DNA of 64,000 nucleotides from Sphaerodactylus townsendi (taxonomy: Eukaryota): positions 18,042,001 to 18,106,000 of the forward strand of contig NC_059440.1 of assembly GCF_021028975.2 (NCBI RefSeq), in the 5' to 3' direction. The position numbers and the translations under genes are program-made. Below, piece after piece: positions 7,160-60,380 of the stretch. Numbering within the stretch: the stretch's first letter is position 1; each line of letters begins with the position of its first letter. Under the pieces are notes generated by a model. That model was given only the letters and a program-made list of their open reading frames with translations. It ran no database searches and was not told the DNA's origin.

Positions 7160-7804
7160 TCATACGTAGTTCTTCCTTTCGTAGCTGGCCACCGTTGACT
7201 TGGGGGCTGAGTAGGTCGTGTTTGTGGGTCTGTACCTGTCATCCTTAGGGGGGCAAGAACAGCAGAGCAAGGCACCCCCGAAAAGTGAGAGGGCAGCCGC
7301 TGCCCAGCCAACGTAGAGAGAAGCTCCTAGCTCTCGCTTCAGGGCTTGGGGCACCGCCACATTGTAGAAGTCACGGATGATGGTATTGGCCGACCAGGAG
7401 ACAGGGATGAGGACCAGGATACCGGCCAACAGGAAGATGACTCCGGAGACGATGGTCACCTTGGCTTTCATGGAATCGTCCTCGATACACCTGGTGCACT
7501 GCGCCCCCATCAAGAAGACAAGGATGCCCAGCAAGCCTAGGACGATAGATATGACCGTCAAGGCACGGGCGGCCTGCAGGTCCGGGGCCAGAGCCAGCAT
7601 GGAGTCGTAGACCTTGCATTGCATCTGGCCAGTGCTCTGCACCACACAGTCCATCCACAGGCCCTCCCAGGTTATCTGCGCAGTGACGATGTTGTAGCCG
7701 ATGAAGGCTGTCACCCGCCACATAGGCAGCCCGCAGGAAAAGATGCAGCCGATCCAGCCCAAGACGGACAGAGATATCCCGCCAATTTCCAGGCCCATCG
7801 ACAT
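7160..7804 (-). CDS. CLDN3: Claudin-3, 214 aa, single exon
   Basis: ATG at 7804 gives MSMGLEIGG. Has the claudin W-GLW-C-C signature, four hydrophobic helices and a C-terminal YERKNYV PDZ motif. N- and C-termini resemble CLDN3, and the gene is divergent from CLDN4 as in mammals. The ORF-track start at 7837 is a TTG. Confidence 0.92.
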
Positions 7805-8830: not shown

Positions 8831-9924
8831 TAGTGGTAATGGGCTTAATAGTAGAGCATGTGGTTTGCATACAGAAGTTACCCACTGCCCAGTCAAATCC
8901 CTGGCATATGATAAGGTTGCCAATTCCAGCTTGGGAAATTCCTGGAAATTTGGGAGCGATGCCTGAGGAGGACAGAGTTGGGGACGGGAAGGAGCCCAGC
9001 AAGAATGGAATATCATCTAATTCCAGGAACACTCTAAGGGAGCTTTTTGAAGTTGACAGCACCTCTAGGCAAAAGGTTCAAGGTAGGGAGTTTTGGGAAT
9101 GGTCTCACTCTGGCTGAGATGGCGGAGAAGGGAAGAGGCATTAATGATCTAGACAGGTCAAGGCTTTGACTGTCACAGTGTAAGGGAACTTCTTATAGGC
9201 AAGGGCCAGGGCTTGTACTTTGGAGGCAGGTCTTTGGTTTGGTCCATGACATCTCCACTTAGAAGATGTGGTAAGAAGCCCTTGTCTTCCTGAGATGGTG
9301 GAGAGAGCTTCTTCCAGACAAACATTGCTAGAAGGACCCATGTTCTTACTCAGTATAAAGCAACTTAATTCATTCGGTATTGGCCTCTGTGGTAAAGAAG
9401 CTTGGCATAAATATCAGGAAGTTGGCCTTTTGCCTTTGCCAGACAGAGAAAGACTTTCTATTTTGCGGCACTTGAGACATTCAGTTTCCTATGGGCCTCC
9501 TTGGTCATTTCTCTACCTCTGTAAGTGCCCATTCTGGAGGTAGGCATGATGCCACTTGAATCAGTTGTATTCCTTTACATCCTTCTGGGAAGAAGGCTGT
9601 TTGTATTTGCTGGAAGAACATTGCATCTCAACTCCTGTGTATACTCCACGAAGCAGGGAAGAGCCATCATCTTTGGAACCATGGTTGGGTTGAATTAATG
9701 AAGAACATAAGAACATCCTTCTTGGATCATACCAAAGTTCCATCCAGTTCACAGTCCTGTTTCCAATAGGGATCAACTACTCCCTGCTAAGAAACTCACA
9801 AGTAGGTCATGAAGGCGATTGACATTTTGTTCCCAGCACCTGTAATTAAAGGTGAATATGGAGGTTCTATGTACTCATCATGCTACAGCTAATATCTGTT
9901 GATGGTTACTTGCAAAAGTCAGGG

Positions 9925-13680: not shown

Positions 13681-15900
13681 TCACCCGTTCTATAGCACCC
13701 ATGATTGAAGACAACTGCCGTGTGCTTTCTGCAAAAGCCTGTCTGAATTGCCCCGCCTCATGTCTTCGATGCTCCTCCTCTTGTCTTTTTTTGCTGTGCC
13801 TCCTCCTTTCTGTGCTGTGCCTCCACGTCTCCTTGATCCACCATTGCACGTGCGAAGCCAGCCAGGACACCCACGCGACGGAGTCTTCTCTTCTCCAGCA
13901 ACGCACGTGTAACCCCCATGCCCAGAATGGGTTGAACCAGTAAGGGGGTGGAGACTCAGAGCAGCAGAAAGGCTGCAGAGCTCTTTGGAGAAGACAAGGC
14001 TACCAGACTCGGACCTTGATTTCTATAAGCCCTTAACACCTTGTTAAGGGTTTCTTTTTTGTGGTTGTAATGGGTGAGAGTTCTCCTGGAAACCTTCATC
14101 ATGTTGCATCCTGTTCATCAAGCCCTTGGAGTCTTCAGGAGCCAACCCACTTGCAAAGAAGAATTAGACTTGGCAGTATCAGTAGACTGTAACTAGAAGG
14201 ACTTGAAATGCAACCTGAACAGGACCTTGAATTGTAATGTTAAATGTTGATGTTTAATGTTATTTGTAAAGAGAAGTAAACTGTTTTGTTTAAATTTGGT
14301 TCTTTGCAACTCCTTCCAAGTACTGCCCCACAGAACCCACAAGCTGAGGTTACACACGGCGTTCTGGTGATGTCTCAACCCAGGGTTGTCCCATTTGTGT
14401 ACCTGTGCAGTAAACAGCAGTGAGCAGCAGAAAAAAGGACGGCTAGATCATGTTTCCACACCACCTTTATAATTTTCTTATTGTGTAGTGCTACTTGATA
14501 TCATGGAGGCTATTCGCAGACAGCAATAAAACAAGGGCACTGTACCGCTTTTTTCCCCCTGTAGGAATGCATAACTTGGGAAAGGGCATGTGTACTGCAG
14601 GAGACAAAGTTTTCCACAGACCACGAAGCAAAGTTAGCAACGTGGCAGAAGCTGCCGTACCTTCCAACTGACTGGTACTGCCCTGGTCAGCATTTATAGC
14701 TCCCTCTTGTAGCTGTGAAACATTGCTTTGCGGGTTGTTCTGCAGACACGGACCTGTGAGAGATGGGTTGAGGAGGGCTACCATGATAAGAACTGTATTG
14801 AACTGCTGCATGCCAATGGAAGGTTAATGTAGTGCAGAAATGCCTCCACATCACATCCCTGAGCACTGCCCAATGGACACTCAATCTCTACTAGTCAGCG
14901 AGCCCTCCTAGAACTGATCACACATGTAGCTTGTCAGAGTTACACAAGAATACACTCACCCTGCATCATAGCATTGTCAATCTGAGTTGCATCTTCCTGT
15001 GTTGATGTGTCGCCATCGGTTCCTGTGTCGGAGGAGGAAGAGGGAGTTTATTAAGTTTGAAAGAGTGTGGCAACACAAGTCCTTATCTCGTGCTCGGGGA
15101 GGGGGGGCTGCCTGTCCGACACGGAGAATGGGAACAGCGTGAGCAGAGAACCTTAGCCAGTAGTCTGGACAGTGCCCAAGGGGTGGGTGGGAAGGGAACG
15201 TGGGGCCACTAGCAGGAATGTCCTACCTGCTATTGCAGTAAGGCCATTAGACATGACTGTCCCAAGATGCAGGAGACTGGCCATAGAAGAGATTGGGGTG
15301 CTTACCAGATGCCAGTAGAGATGGACTACTGGCAAGGATGGCCGATTCATCCATGATCTGCAACGTTGATTGAGAGACGGGTTGCACATTCGATGCAGTG
15401 TGAGAAGTACTGTTGGCCGCAACACACACCGTTGCTCTCAGTTGTTCGGGGGGATTGACATTTCTGTCATCAATCAGTATGCTGTCCGGCTCATTGTAGA
15501 ATGGCATCGTTTTTGGACTGTTCCCCGAAACCCTGTTGTGCTGAGCAACACGCTTAAAGTCCCTCTTAAGCGCCTTTGCCTTTGTGCGGCACTCTGTCGC
15601 AGTCCTCTTGTGGCCCCTTCTGTTCATCCCTGCCGCAACCTTTTGGAACACATCCATGTTACGATAGCTGCTCTTCAGTGACTTCTGCACTTCCTGTTCT
15701 CCCCATATTCCAATTAGATCTCTTGTTTCTGCTTCCTGCCACGCAACACCTCTACCCTTGTTGGCAGGCCCTGTGAATCCCACAGAGGTGTCAGACGCAG
15801 CACTCCCCGCCACGGGCAAGTTTGTATTGCTGGTTTGCATGTGAGCAGCTCCAGATATGATGTATGTCAACCTTGGGAGAGAGTAAGGGGGATAGTGCAT
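13681..15900 (-). pseudogene. Harbinger Myb/SANT (trihelix, MSANTD-like) DNA-binding protein, disrupted
   Basis: The domain reads WQEAETRDLIGIW..VFQKVAAGM..RTATECRTKAKALKRDF..MPFY. Exons are 15900-15306, 15022-14960, 14753-14661 and 14402-(LTR)-13681, all with GT-AG phase-1 introns. There is an LTR insertion and a +1 frameshift in the A7 run at 13786-13792. Confidence 0.8.
13908..14354 (+). mobile_element. Solo LTR (Gypsy- or ERV-type), 447 bp
   Basis: TGTAACC...GGTTACA inverted termini, exact 4-bp TSD CACG (13904-13907 and 14355-14358), internal TATAA near 14025 and AGTAAA near 14275. Confidence 0.85.
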
Positions 15901-17172
15901 ATCTGTTCGTTTGAAGCAACGTGAAATCAGTGTCAGTGCAACGACGGTCTTCTGCAAATGGTTAAAAAAAAAAGCTCAGCACACGCTCTGTGATTGGACG
16001 GGACTCCCGTGTGGCGGGAGAACCAAACACGAATTCGGCCCCTGACATTCCCCACTTATCCAACGTATCCAGCGTTGGGGGGCGTGTTAATTAAAAAGTT
16101 GAACTTCGAAGCAGCGTCGGTAAAAGTGCTTGATTACGCAGGGCACACACATTAGAATCTGTTGTTGGCACGTATGTAGTGAGGAACGTTGAATCGATCC
16201 GCCTTGTTTTGATGATTTATCCAGCATTAATTTGCCCGTGGGGAATGCGCCTTTGTTTTAATGTGAATTCAAAACACTTCTGCAAAATGACTTCAAATGA
16301 AAGCTCCAACATGAAACGGCCAAACTGGGGTTTACGCAAAGGTTTCACACTCCCTCCATTGCAGAGGTGTAGCAAGGGGGGAAAGCACCTGGTGCACTGG
16401 TGCGTCCTCCGCCCCCGTCCCGCCCCAAACACCCCCAGAATGCCCCGGAACGCCCTTGCCACACCCCCACAGGGGCACGCGCCCAGTGCATCGCACACCC
16501 CCTGTCCCCTTGGAGCTATGCTTTTGCTCCACTGCCCTCTGCTTATTGAATGGAAATGTTGCTGCTATGCCTGAAATCTTACTCTGCCCTCCTGGATGTA
16601 GGCACTGTTTCAATTTGTTGTTTTTTCCTGTGAACTGTTGCATGCTCAAAGCGCTTTTCTCCCATTTCCTCATATTTTGGATATGAGAGAGTAAAGCCCG
16701 ACAATCTCCATCGCTGACACGCCTTCTTCATGGCCTTCTGCCAGGGTGTCGAGTATCTCCAACCCAGCAGGGAAACAGGACCAGCTGTTGGCAGGATACT
16801 TCAGTTTGCAAATATTGTTTTATCAAGACACTTTACAACGTTTCTACTAGGAGCGATGGTAAGGGGGAAGGGAGTCTCCACCGAAAGGACCTCTAATGAG
16901 CTTCCTATTGTGGGTTTATAAAGCACTGCTGTTCAGATGGAACCTCTCTGCAGCCCACGTCAATCCTGTTCTTTCAAGTGGACTAAACACGTAACAGTGT
17001 ACAATGGAAAAAGGACAAATATTGAGAGTCAGGGTATTGTTCAAGGCTTTCACGGCCAGAACCAACTGGCTGTTGTGGGATTTCCGGGCCGTGTGACTCA
17101 GTGTGGCGCAGATCACTTCTCCGGATTAGAGATTGCTACTTTTAACCACCACACCATGCTGACCGAGGCAAA

Positions 17173-21162: not shown

Positions 21163-21365
21163 NNNNNNNNNNNNNNNNNNNNNNNNNNNNNNNNNNNNNN
21201 NNNNNNNNNNNNNNNNNNNNNNNNNNNNNNNNNNNNNNNNNNNNNNNNNNNNNNNNNNNNNNNNNNNNNNNNNNNNNNNNNNNNNNNNNNNNNNNNNNNN
21301 NNNNNNNNNNNNNNNNNNNNNNNNNNNNNNNNNNNNNNNNNNNNNNNNNNNNNNNNNNNNNNNNN
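21163..21365. other. Assembly gap
   Basis: Run of N. Confidence 0.99.
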
Positions 21366-21859: not shown

Positions 21860-22148
21860 GGCCAGTAGTGGTGTAGTGGTGAAGAGCAGATGGATTCTAA
21901 TCTGGAGAACCGGGTTTGATTCCTCACTCCTCCACCTGAGTGGCAGAGTCTTACCTGGTGAACCAGATGTGTTTCCACACTCCTACAATCCTGCTGGGTG
22001 ACCTTGGGCTAGTCACAATTCTCTCAGGACTCCCTCAGCCCCACCTACCTCACAAGGTGTCTGTTGTGGGGAGAGGACGGGAAAGGAGCTTGTAAGCCAC
22101 CTTGGGTCTCCTTACAGGAGAGAAAGGTGGGATATAAATCTTCTTCTA
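21860..22148 (+). mobile_element. Squam3-like SINE, subfamily B, full length
   Basis: Head, ccagatgtgtttccacactcc body, core and (CTT)n tail. Confidence 0.88.
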
Positions 22149-22622
22149 CGCAATCAATTATAATCCCAAGAGATCTCCAGCCAACCCCAGGGGGTTGGCA
22201 ATTCTTTTCTTTTTTTGTAAAGTGGCTCTTTGTTACAAACAAATGTACACATACAGGATGTACACAAGGTTCACTGTAACACCTGACCTAGTGCTGGCAG
22301 TGAGGTTATATGGCTTATGGGCTGGTGATTAATTGAGAGTTTCTCCAGGTGTGGCAAGAGGGCCCTCATGGGAAACGGTTAAACTCCTACCTCCCTTTCT
22401 ACACTTTGATCTCTCGGTTTTAGGACAGGTTCACTTTCACTGACCTTTCGTCAGCTGTTTGACTTGCAAGTAAGACGAGCTGCCTTTGAATTGAGTGAGC
22501 AAGATCCAACCCGCTTGGCTCAACACAGCCTTTTTACCTTAAACTCAACCTCGCTAAAGCAAAGCAGAGCCGTTTGTTGAGGGTTTTCCGGGCTGTGTGG
22601 CCGTGGTCTGGTAGATCTTGTT

Positions 22623-22663
22623 GCTAACGTTTCGTCTGCATCTGTGGCTGGCATCTTCAGAGG
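22623..22663 (-). ncRNA. Minimal hammerhead ribozyme motif, antisense arm
   Basis: Reverse complement is CCT-CTGAAGA-T-GCC-loop-GAC-GAAA-CGTT-AG, with one mismatch in stem II. Confidence 0.55.
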
Positions 22664-22716
22664 TGTATCACAAAGAGACTGGACACAGTGTGTAACAGAC
22701 TTCTCTCTGTGATACA

Positions 22717-22757
22717 CCTCTGAAGATGCCAGCCACAGATGCAGGCGAAACGTTAGC
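22717..22757 (+). ncRNA. Minimal type I hammerhead ribozyme motif (Penelope-associated)
   Basis: CCT-CTGAAGA-T-GCC-loop-GGC-GAAA-CGTT-AG: intact CUGANGA and GAAA core, stem II GCC/GGC, and a palindromic AACGTT in place of stem III. Confidence 0.7.
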
Positions 22758-23355
22758 AACAAGATCTACCAGACCACGGCCACACAGCCTGGAAAAACCC
22801 ACAACACCAATTGAATCCGGCCGTGAAAGCCTTCAACAGTACATCAAAGCAGAGCTGTTTGTGAAGCACTTTGCCACTGGCTCGAAGGCAGAACGTTCCT
22901 CAAGGTGAGCTGTGGTAGAGCTCATATCTGGTCCTGCAGGCAAAATCCCCAGCTGAGGCTGGAATGTATGAACAAAATATAAGACTTCAAAGTATTATAG
23001 TGCTTTGAAATATGACAGCGCTTTGCTCTCAGCATATGTTTGGGAACAGAAGGGAACTGAAGGGTACATTCGGCATTCTCAGCTTTGATTTCTGAGTGCT
23101 TCTGGGAGCATTCCCTTCTTCAAGTATATGGCCATTCATGCATGCACTATCTGCCCTGCAGCTGTTTGCTTTGCAGTGGGTTTTCCCTGTGGGTTTTGGT
23201 TTACACAGGGATTCTTCTCCTGCAAAGTGTTCCTAGTCAAAACCAACTGTTATTTTGCCCACCCACCACTCCCTTGTTATTTTCATGCCACCTTCATTTG
23301 GGAAGGTTTCCTGCCACCTTTTTTGGGTGGGTGGGTGGGTATCTTTGGTCTAGCA

Positions 23356-23470
23356 CACAGGTGTCAAACTCACGGCCCTCCATATGTTATGGACTACAGT
23401 TCCCATCATCCCCTGCCATGCTGGAACTGCAGTCCATAACATCTGGAGGGCCGTGAGTTTGACACCTATG
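23356..23470. mobile_element. Small palindromic hAT MITE
   Basis: TIR CA(C/T)AGGTGTCAAACTCACGGCCCTCCA, near-perfect fold-back, and ctagca-containing flanks. Confidence 0.8.
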
Positions 23471-30209: not shown

Positions 30210-30320
30210 CAGGAATCCGGGAGAACTGGTTTGAGCCTCGGCGTCTGTTCATGCTGGATGGGGCTTGGGAGACTCCACCCACCGTCGAGACATATAATTT
30301 CCCCAAATTTACCACCTGCA
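30210..30320 (+). promoter_or_regulatory. CLDN4 core promoter with Grainyhead-like (GRHL) site
   Basis: AATCCGGG-AG-AACTGGTT (30214-30231), a CACCC box, TATAAT at 30293-30298 and an E-box at 30313-30318. Confidence 0.7.
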
Positions 30321-30407
30321 GCTCACTCACACGGGCACATCTACGGTTGCTGCAGCTTTCCCATTTCCAGCCCAGCGACAGGTGCAGGGAGCCGGGAGCC
30401 GGGCATG

Positions 30408-31037
30408 ATGGCGACCATGGGGATTCAAGTGTTGGGCATCACGCTCTCCGTCATTGGCTGGCTGGGGTCCATCCTGTGCTGCGCCCTCCCGATGTGGCGC
30501 GTGACAGCGTACATAGGCAACAACATCGTGGTAGCCCAGATCATCTGGGATGGCCTGTGGATGAACTGCGTGGTCCAAAGCACCGGGCAGATGCAGTGCC
30601 AGATCTACGAGTCCATGCTGGCGCTGGCCCAGGACATGCAAGCCGCCCGGGCGCTGGTGGTCGTCGCGATTGTCCTGGCGGTGGCGGGGATCTTTTTCGC
30701 CATCATCGGAGGGAAGTGCACCAGCTGCGTGGAAGACGAGACGTCCAAGGCCAAGATCATCATCTTTTCCGGCATCATCTTCATCCTGTCCAGCCTCATG
30801 CTCCTCATCCCCCTCTGCTGGACCGCCAACATGATCATCCGGGACTTCTACAATCCCATGGTCCCCGACAGCCAGAAGCGGGAGCTGGGCGCCTCGCTGT
30901 ACATCGGCTGGGCCGCCTCCGGCCTGCTCCTCCTTGGAGGGGTGCTACTCTGTTTCAACTGCCCCCCTAAAAACGAGAAACCGTATTCGGCAAAGTACAC
31001 GGCGACCCGATCCGTGCCGGCCAGCAACTATGTCTAA
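30408..31037 (+). CDS. CLDN4: Claudin-4, 209 aa (210 aa from the adjacent ATG at 30405), single exon
   Basis: [10 protein letters not shown] start, GGKCT, and C-terminus [19 protein letters not shown] closely matching the CLDN4 tail. Synteny with CLDN3 and METTL27. Confidence 0.93.
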
Positions 31038-37185: not shown

Positions 37186-38187
37186 GCAGAATGAACAAGG
37201 AAGCATTGGGCATGTAAAATGGCAGCTTGGCTTGGCTGGGGACCCTTTTCAGGGGAGATAAATAAAATAAATATGCAAATAAAAAAACCCACAGGAAAAT
37301 CCCACCGTGAAGCAAACAGTTGTGGGGTAAGTAGTGCGTGCATAAATAGCAAATGCCACCCAGGACAATATCAGCCCTTCTTAAATAATGCCTTCCCTGG
37401 GTGATGTGTCATCTGTGGATCAGAAGTGAAGCTTGCAAAATCTGTTTGGGGTGCAGAAATTGGTGCGTAGGCAGCATCCGAATGAGTTTCCAGTAGCACA
37501 GTTCAGCTGAGCTGTGTTTCTGGGTGTGTATGGCAGCACTGTTTGGCATCTGGCTGCTTCTACAGACCACAATGGAGCCCAGATGTGCCAGCTGTTTAGT
37601 TATGAGATTGCTACTTCTAGGACGTTAGGTGGTCTCCTTTCTTTGGGTCCAAGGGTTTCTAAAACCTTGCAGTTGGCACCTGAGGTTTCACAACAGTACC
37701 TTTGTCAGGGCCTGCTCTTATCAAAAGCAAAACAAATGATGCAAGACGGCTTCTCCTCCCCAGCAACACCCAAACTGCACCCTCCTTGCAAAGCCAATAT
37801 GATGTTGTTTGTCTCCTGAGCACTGACACCCTGAATTATTTTGCCCCCAAGTGATCTGGCTGAGACATCTGTCATCTCCTTGATCACCAAGGTTGATTCA
37901 GCTGACCTGGCTGGCAAGGTGGGTGTCCCCCACCTCCCTCACCACTCCATGTGTGTCCCTCCTGAAGCTGCGCACTCAGCGGAAGAGGACAACCATTCCA
38001 GATAGGAGTGTACCATTCTTCAATCAAAGAAATATGGTAGCTGCACTCCCCTGCTACAACCTCCAAACAAACTCAAGGTCCAGAGTTACTTTCTCCCCAA
38101 AATGGTTCCTTCAAGGAGCTAGCTTAGCCAAAACCTATTAAGAGAAACCAGCTTTCTTCTCTGTGATTTTTTAAAAAAATGTGCATC

Positions 38188-40601: not shown

Positions 40602-41249
40602 ATGGCGGCCCTGGCCCTGCAGTTGGCGGGGCTGGCCCTGTCGGTCTTGGGCTGCCTGGGGGCCATCTTGGCTTGCGCCCTTCCCATGTGGAGGATGACG
40701 GCCTTCATCGGCTCCAACATCATTGTCGCACAGGTCTTCTGGGAGGGCCTGTGGATGAACTGCGTCTACGAGAGCACCGGCCAAATGCAGTGCAAGATCT
40801 ACGACTCCTTGCTGGACCTCCCCTCGGACCTGCAGGCTGCCCGTGCTCTTGTGGTGGTCTCCATCGCGATGGCCTTCCTGGCTCTCCTCGTTGCTATCAC
40901 CAGCGCCGAGTGCACCCGTTGCATCGAGGACCGAAGCGTCAAGGCCAAAGTCTCAGCGGTGGCCGGCACGATCTTTGTCCTGGCTGGGCTGACTCTTCTT
41001 GTTCCCGTGTCTTGGTCAGCCAGCACCATCATCAGCAACTTCTACAACCCGCTGGTGCCTGCGGCCCTGAAACGAGAGCTGGGGGTGGCTCTGTATGTGG
41101 GCTGGGTGGCCAGCGGCCTCTTGATGTTTGGGGGCTTCACCCTCTGCTGCCTCTTCCCTCAAAACAAGGTTGAGAAACCCTTCCAGATGAGATATAGTGC
41201 AGGAAGACGTTCCAACCTGGGCAGCTACGCCCGGAAAGACTATGTGTAA
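40602..41249 (+). CDS. Claudin-3/4-like paralogue, 215 aa
   Basis: Strong Kozak context gccATGg. Claudin signature W30-GLW-C54-C64, NPLVP in ECL2, C-terminal YARKDYV and an intact frame. A splice acceptor lies immediately upstream (AG at 40598-40599). Confidence 0.92.
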
Positions 41250-46737: not shown

Positions 46738-46882
46738 CACTTCTCTCTGTGATACACTTCTAAAGATGCCGACCACAGATGCAGGCGAAACGTTAGGAAC
46801 AAGATCTACCAGACCACGGCCACACAGCCCGGAAAACCCACCACAACCAGTTGAATCCGACCACGAAAGCCTTCGACAATAC
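46738..46882 (+). mobile_element. Penelope-like terminal repeat with a mutated hammerhead (CTAAAGA)
   Basis: Near-identical to 22700-22844. Confidence 0.8.
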
Positions 46883-60134: not shown

Positions 60135-60380
60135 TGGATTCCACTCAACACATGCAAAGCACATTTGCTAATTGCACCCTAATTGCACATTTGCTAATTG
60201 CACTTGTTAACCAATGCAAATGGTTCTTCCCCCACCCTGGACATTCCACAGGTATATATACTCCACTTGCTTTACTACCATCAGAGCCCCTGAAGATGCC
60301 AGCCACAGATGCAGGCAAAATATCAGGAGAAAATGCTAGTAGAACACAGCCATACAGCCCGGAAATCCCACAACACCCCA
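60135..60380 (+). mobile_element. Penelope-like terminal repeat (second subfamily) with a decayed hammerhead
   Basis: TATA-like tatatata, then CCC-CTGAAGA-TGCC-AGCCACAGATGCA-GGC-AAAA-TATC-AGG and cagccatacagcccggaaa. Confidence 0.7.

Follow-up and report, generated by a model that had tools for sequence, protein, structure and literature searches.

EN+ Penelope-like elements (PLEs) typically insert as head-to-head inverted copies with a tail of 30-40 nt at one end (PMC3846280, PMC8557442). In the description by Arkhipova et al. (2013, PMC3846280), the target-site duplication (TSD) surrounds the whole unit, and the head-to-head configuration is the most frequent arrangement; the origin of the inverted repeats and one-sided tails is called undefined in PMC8557442. 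Cervera and De la Pena (2014, PMC4209133) reported minimal hammerhead ribozymes in PLE repeats, with similar motifs in reptiles, and in Schistosoma pairs of such hammerheads lie on opposite strands, 100-700 bp apart. The closest known system for our purposes is PAc (Poseidon_Ac) of Anolis carolinensis (Frangieh et al. 2024, PMC11167929), in which the ORF begins at stem II of the hammerhead, 26 nt ahead of the cut. Both target strands are nicked by PAc, and both are extended using the same start sites; its reverse transcription initiates at +111 to +118, with the tail located between two start sites. Its ribozyme cleaves only when the protein is present, insertion still occurs with ribozyme mutants, and the cut is not marked by RNA-seq read ends; in vivo cutting by PLE hammerheads is still a question according to the same article, the accessible part of which does not treat inverted pairs for PAc. 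Lizard Penelope sequences are also known to be massively A-to-I edited, at over 40,000 sites (Porath et al. 2017, PMC5625713). These and the other literature comparisons below refer to the accessible parts of the articles cited. Our searches on Penelope in geckos, twin priming and squamate dsRNA or ADAR, most subscription papers being outside their range, retrieved nothing treating a locus such as the one described here.

We characterized an insert of 267 nt in a 64-kb stretch of DNA, hereafter the window. It is a decayed Poseidon-clade scar in the typical inverted form of its class, and in this respect ordinary. Its features are as follows.

22560..22577, plus strand: left TSD, 18 nt, the final 4 nt of which (22574-22577) are complementary to family sequence at the left-arm end
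22578-22844: PLE-derived insert, 267 nt, between the 18-nt TSDs
22578..22678, minus strand: left copy, an inverted, 5'-truncated, tail-less 3' end of the element
22623..22663, minus strand: minimal hammerhead of the left arm, with an intact core, a broken middle pair in stem II (22635) and a stem I of 2 bp (22623)
22679..22701, plus strand: inter-arm loop of 23 nt, native to the element and part of the right copy
22702..22805, plus strand: right arm, a sense copy of the element 3' end (pLTR part)
22717..22757, plus strand: minimal hammerhead of the right arm, with the core at 22720-22726 and 22747-22750, stem II at 22728-22730/22744-22746 and the GUU triplet at 22752-22754
22726..22845, plus strand: codons 1-40 of the family ORF, the ATG lying where stem II begins
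22806..22844, plus strand: tail, 39 nt, in the right copy only, ending at +119
22845..22862, plus strand: right TSD, 18 nt

The two copies are joined through their 5' ends, the right one running from 22679 to 22844 on the plus strand and the left one from 22678 to about 22578 on the minus strand, without the final 39 nt. The inverted arms proper (22581-22678 and 22702-22799) are 98 nt each, 23 nt apart and 96% complementary, differing by three substitutions within the first 95 nt and one indel. They are unequal in extent, as the right one has the 39-nt tail and 23 extra nt on its 5' side; the outer end of the left copy lies at about +76 to +82 counted from the family ATG. As RNA, the whole insert is predicted to fold at -220 kcal/mol (z -22.5), a stability equalled by none of 100 shuffles. 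A first-pass annotation, made from the letters alone, had described an insert of 270 bp made of two inverted arms, each with a hammerhead motif, within a TSD of about 15 bp. The insert and both hammerhead-bearing arms are there, with two complete cores; the TSDs (22560-22577/22845-22862) are longer than was thought, at 18 nt with one mismatch. The last 4 nt of the left TSD could equally be element sequence, the family continuation that defines this complementarity being read from loose alignment ends behind 22796; at the right end there is no such complementarity between target and element. Since family read depth extends over 22679-22694, the 23-nt loop is element sequence, with loose alignment ends present before 22682 inside it. 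The copies overlap by 1 nt at their junction (22678), where a weak quasi-palindrome is found. Among 61 words taken from 22400-23000, a fraction of 0.87 was present in the best-matching run, which may come from the source sample itself; this supports the left arm and the junction indirectly. Runs with small shares of these words were left out of the analysis.

An inverted, 5'-truncated copy, a tail at one end and a TSD, by which a PLE insertion can be recognized, are thus all present. As in the canonical EN+ PLE unit (PMC3846280; Craig et al. 2021, PMC8557442), there is an inverted copy, a one-end tail and one TSD, in agreement with the first-pass view of the inverted arrangement as that of PLEs. 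Unlike that unit, the insert is extremely truncated, with just two pLTR ends left; its TSD is 18 nt long, compared with 8-10 nt in the rotifer examples, and its junction palindrome is weak. The hammerhead pair had been put forward as noteworthy, but both inverted minimal hammerhead pairs (PMC4209133) and the form with inverted copy plus tail (PMC3846280, PMC8557442) were already published. Two other classes of element were rejected. A MITE or DNA transposon is excluded by the unpaired 39-nt tail at the right end and by arms made of retroelement sequence. The insert does resemble non-LTR retrozymes (bioRxiv 10.64898/2026.07.22.740005), in that both are short PLE-derived units that are non-coding and contain a type I hammerhead; however, retrozymes are direct tandem repeats able to form a dimer ribozyme, whereas here the units are inverted, with one sense ribozyme per transcript, which rules out this assignment.

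On sequence grounds, the insert is almost certainly the 3' end of a Poseidon-clade PLE. Aligned without gaps and counted by eye against the first 90 of the 96 nt of PAc RNA given in PMC11167929 (supplementary figure 1), 22755-22844 is identical at 58 of 90 positions, including 49 of the last 70. The remaining 6 nt of that PAc RNA agree with the beginning of the sequence that 322 RNA reads show as a loose end beyond 22844. Between the ATG at 22726 and the cut after 22754 there are 26 nt, as in Anolis PAc, and RNA reads continue beyond the tail in an open frame for 10 codons. These identities and this spacing bear out the earlier designation of the motifs as Penelope-type minimal hammerheads. 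The likeness to PAc extends to the colinear 3' end, the ORF start at stem II, the 30-40 nt tail and the right end of the insert (+119), which adjoins the distal zone of reverse-transcription starts (+111 to +118). This likeness points to a lizard as the likely host. In contrast with PAc, this copy has neither reverse transcriptase (RT) nor endonuclease, its ribozymes are damaged, and it belongs to a different subfamily, with a GUU triplet and another sequence directly after the cut.

The family is very abundant. Alignments on 22679-23150 numbered 90,101, 45,230 and 20,217 contigs in DNA-type runs from three organisms, totals that do not equal copy numbers, and 6,920 reads in one RNA run. Depth reached millions over the element and fell to 43 over the unique flank. 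In the window itself we counted 5 copies or arms per 64 kb.

Both arms carry the CUGANGA and GAAA core, a NUH triplet and a palindromic 15.2-16.2 without loop 3. Exactly two complete cores were found by a core scan of the 64-kb window, at 22720 (plus strand) and 22660 (minus strand), and a 33-nt ribozyme stretch occurs four times in the window at up to 3 mismatches, against 0 expected from 100 shuffles. The predicted cut of the left hammerhead falls after 22626. The GUU at 22752-22754 and the 13-nt loop of stem II were described correctly in the first-pass annotation. The insert shares with the minimal type I hammerheads of metazoan PLEs (PMC4209133) the core, the unpaired base before stem II, the G10.1-C11.1 pair, the palindromic C15.2-G16.2 and the absence of loop 3. 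It departs from them in stem I, of 4-5 bp in the published motifs, 3 bp in the family and 2 bp here, and in the broken stem II of the left arm.

The state of the stems distinguishes these two copies from their family. In the right arm, a C at 22757 shortens stem I to 2 bp. In three DNA runs, G makes up 95.8%, 97.2% and 99.1% of family depth at this position, so that the weakening of stem I noticed at first pass is real. The same C occurs in both arms (22757/22623), although bases other than G account for no more than 4% of family depth there. Stem I thus has 2 bp in each arm, or 3 bp with the family G, short of the expected 4-5 bp or so, and we consider both hammerheads decayed derivatives on account of these 2-bp stems. 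Stem II with a paired G10.1-C11.1 is found in the right arm only. A G/A variation between the arms had also been recorded; it exists, but it breaks the left stem II by a C-A mismatch at the middle pair. In the predicted fold of the right arm alone, the pair probability is 0.58 for stem II and 0.002 for stem I, and within the whole insert all five hammerhead pairs have a probability of 0.000, in line with the prediction that the hairpin would block the ribozyme fold.

Stem III had been described as a loopless palindrome, AACGTT. The palindrome without loop stands, but as a dimer helix it is shorter than it looks: in AACGUU, the terminal A and U occupy core positions A14 and U17, so that the helix between two molecules would be ACGU only. 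Nor could the arms serve as partners for one another, since a transcript of either strand has one sense ribozyme and its complement. Altogether, both ribozymes are damaged and likely inactive.

The Infernal/Rfam hammerhead search proposed as a check at first pass returned no hammerhead: in the window, at the gathering threshold, the sole match was to 7SK, and on 22400-23000, with E values up to 10, none of the 9 sub-threshold matches was a hammerhead. The isrG and miRNA matches, below gathering scores, reflect the long hairpin and were discarded. No pile-up of RNA ends was found at the cut site in one family-level RNA run, a weak test with a fragmented cDNA library; PAc similarly shows no RNA ends at the cut. 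We also looked at family copies for preferential conservation of the core, which was absent at the CpG core base G12. This base (22747) is altered in 17.5% of family depth, compared with 13.7% and 15.8% at two non-core CpG Gs, in a comparison drawn from 40 of 94 variant rows. The G12 change is neutral decay of dead copies and no argument against function in source elements: dead copies are expected to decay there, so that core decay in genomic copies is not a refutation. Likewise, failure of the RNA to cleave on its own would not refute the ribozyme, because the Anolis homologue needs its protein (PMC11167929).

We then considered how two truncated copies came to lie head to head. On balance we think it probable that two truncated Poseidon-clade 3' ends were placed head to head within 18-nt TSDs, likely by one insertion event primed from both nicks, the hammerheads being damaged and likely inactive passengers. 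The element protein would nick both target strands about 18 nt apart, and each nick would serve as primer for copying uncleaved element RNA of a common source, either one molecule or one source locus. One cDNA would start at the distal site, giving the tail, and the other at the proximal site, giving none; the two would extend 76 and 53 nt beyond the site of ribozyme cleavage before stopping, and their ends would be joined by host repair with 1 nt of overlap. Since the copies continue beyond the cut site, by 53 and 76 nt, their template was uncleaved. A single event from a single source is indicated by the one TSD pair around both arms and by the rare C that they have in common, which could equally stem from a single molecule, from a pair of RNAs made at one source locus or from gene conversion. 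Priming from two nicks is favoured because PAc extends both strands and because the outer ends of the insert (+119 and about +80) fit the two PAc start zones, the fit to the proximal zone being by tail length only.

The hairpin could instead have been made by fold-back, the distal-primed cDNA stopping at 22678-22679 and copying itself up to the tail boundary, after which its end would be resolved and joined to the target. This would place the rare C in both arms without extra assumption, and palindromes at inverted junctions were read as self-priming on an antisense template in PMC3846280. The cDNA end can be folded to within 3-4 nt of the restart point, and end joining after fold-back would leave the same 4-nt complementarity at the left end. 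The inverted form recurs in other family copies, in which 4 of the 15 joints listed out of 93 were opposite-strand; all four have one end in 22679-22691, with gaps of 39-79 nt, though the aligned stretch itself starts at 22679. However, the DNA hairpin at the junction is weak, at -2.6 kcal/mol; as good a value was obtained for 161 of 2000 shuffles, 292 of which fold back at all. The register requires a 3-nt skip, for a direct overlap of 1 nt, and stopping at the tail boundary calls for an extra step, whereas two-ended priming gives this boundary directly. We had at first regarded fold-back as slightly better than an even bet and now regard it as rather doubtful, since the junction palindrome is not significant. 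One copy does not separate this route from two-primer synthesis, which we infer from the ends of the insert.

Might the arms have arrived independently, by two separate insertions, or might a later inversion or gene conversion have made the hairpin? The family is dense enough for such encounters, with 5 copies or arms in 64 kb, and the arms differ by the three substitutions and the indel mentioned above. This is nevertheless very unlikely: a single TSD pair surrounds both arms, with none at the junction, they have a rare base in common, and the form is typical of the class. An assembly artefact, in the shape of a palindromic chimera, is scarcely credible. No contig spans the whole aligned stretch, but the arms are non-identical, a TSD is present, and the tail is joined to unique flank in contigs from two organisms.

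Two observations on joints in other family copies are worth recording. A joint at 22758 is the deepest of those listed in two runs; it is opposite-strand, with one side starting at this position, and another junction connects 22844 to 22758. Since the private base at 22757 would clip alignments, joints at 22758 may represent copies starting at the cut (22755); one of their ends lies at the edge of the aligned stretch, and they are possibly artefacts. Separately, a native hairpin (22688-22716) lies directly upstream of the ribozyme, and the long-arm ends of the four listed inverted joints, at 22679-22691, are on its 5' side.

Under the preferred reading, insertion primed from both nicks, read-through RNA is predicted to form a hairpin of about 98 bp that would block the ribozyme fold and might serve as an ADAR substrate, as a by-product. 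In a family-level RNA run from organism B, of which about 6 in 100 was read, the 83 variable places include 24 with A>G and 10 with T>C, compared with 7 and 3, respectively, of 49 in a DNA run with the same species label. Taken together, these changes account for 34/83 places in RNA versus 10/49 in DNA (Fisher p 0.02, a rough value, the places not being independent); in the other two DNA runs they account for 8/46 and 7/38. At 22755, the stem I base directly after the cut, A>G is seen in 9.5% of RNA reads versus 0.8% of DNA depth, and at 22759 in 8.7% versus 2.1%; no such enrichment is seen at 22784 (8.4% in RNA, 8.8% in DNA). This fits ADAR editing of family transcripts, bearing in mind that the runs come from different individuals and that expressed copies may be a biased subset. 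It also agrees with PMC5625713, in which lizard Penelope and the self-folding Harbinger repeats of frogs are edited; the difference is that lizard Penelope editing is not linked to built-in inverted insertions in the accessible part of that article.

The picture differs for the insert locus itself, where one RNA run gave at most 1 read on the unique flank, and none of the listed matches to 22400-23000 was an RNA run. The proposal that the hairpin is a dsRNA substrate has family-level support, and at most that one flanking read at this locus. Similarly, a transcript of either strand would contain a ribozyme and its complement, as had been proposed, but transcription across the locus, also assumed at first pass, was not borne out by that RNA run.

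A broader and, in our judgement, unlikely extension would be that head-to-head scars reflect a PLE-specific twin priming, in which a protein dimer uses both nicks and one RNA with two adjacent start sites, hence the one-end tail; that the resulting hairpins are the main source of A-to-I editing in lizard Penelope, including that at 22755; and that the subset truncated at the cut consists of fossils of in vivo cleavage. The insert alone matters little: very many such dead copies exist, and their insertion form is already published. The remaining value lies at the family level, in the priming of the ends, in inverted copies as drivers of editing and in copies that start at the cut site. With an abundant family and a close relative that works in vitro, both published questions, the origin of inverted repeats with one-sided tails and cutting in vivo, could be tested by surveying the inverted copies of a single genome.

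The insert lies among claudin genes, for which we found the following single-exon ORFs (Pfam PF00822).

7160-7804, minus strand: claudin ORF
30258-31037, plus strand: claudin ORF
40602-41249, plus strand: claudin ORF

The position of the insert between two divergent claudin ORFs raises the idea of a regulatory RNA or cruciform retained by the host for the claudin cluster, and organism B appears to have the same insertion. A contig from this organism aligns over 22820-22926 with 6 differences; its element side covers 25 letters only, for a bridging rule of 31, but an empty site would mismatch 14 of these 25 letters, as counted by eye, which makes the insertion likely in organism B. Across two of its contigs, 12 of 335 letters differ from the window. 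Host retention is very improbable all the same, a shade more so than separate insertions: the ORFs at 7160-7804 and 30258-31037 are 14.8 kb and 7.4 kb away and both point away from the insert, arm and TSD show ordinary CpG decay, both ribozymes are damaged, and at most the single RNA read noted above falls on the flank.

Other elements were noticed in the window. At 23356-23470, 500 nt from the insert, there is a small MITE-like element with inverted arms of 48 nt (94% complementary). An interspersed repeat of about 270 nt, probably a SINE, is present in more than 10 copies (21868-22140 and others). A full-length match to 7SK RNA (132 bits) lies between two claudin ORFs at 37849-38167. An ORF at 15247-15900 on the minus strand encodes a Myb/SANT-like domain (PF13837, E 8e-19) and possibly derives, we assume, from a Harbinger-type transposon. 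Runs of N near 9920, 21180-21360 and 35250 appear as X in ORF translations; none touches the insert.

The first-pass annotation had also suggested looking for the parent element, with RT and GIY-YIG domains. Such an ORF is absent from the 64-kb window and from the truncated copy, and three protein searches did not recover it. The first, among 9 candidates, gave no match. The second gave four matches: P0002 and P0005 are repetitive proteins, judged to be chance matches, and P0003 and P0004 are short read-throughs without Pfam domains. The idea that P0004 is read across an inverted junction in another animal was dropped, as direct comparison gave no alignment. The third search yielded 5 matches among 4644 candidates, one of them, P0007, with a weak RT match. 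In P0007, the family peptide (56% identity) follows an RT-like stretch in which we presume RT motifs to be present (Pfam RVT_1 E 0.0069, below the cut-off). A pattern scan of viral, genome and metagenome contigs for outside loci gave no matches.

Three further copies of the family were identified in the window.

46739..46882, plus strand: solo copy with tail, 89.7% identity over 145 nt; the family G of stem I is kept and core G5 is mutated
60287..60377, plus strand: tail-less copy of a second subfamily, 79% identity over 92 nt, with a decayed core
17034..17095, minus strand: short 3'-end copy, 82.5% identity over 63 nt, with tail and without ribozyme

TSDs were found for none of these three copies, whose 5' ends are uncertain. 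The two that cover the core (46739-46882 and 60287-60377) are both mutated in it, and the comparison of stems across copies involves 4 copies, all from the window. The subfamily represented at 60287-60377 is set apart by its GUC triplet and its upstream sequence, with the 40-nt ribozyme stretch in common, and it is frequent in the RNA run, in which 1233 loose ends were found behind 22753.
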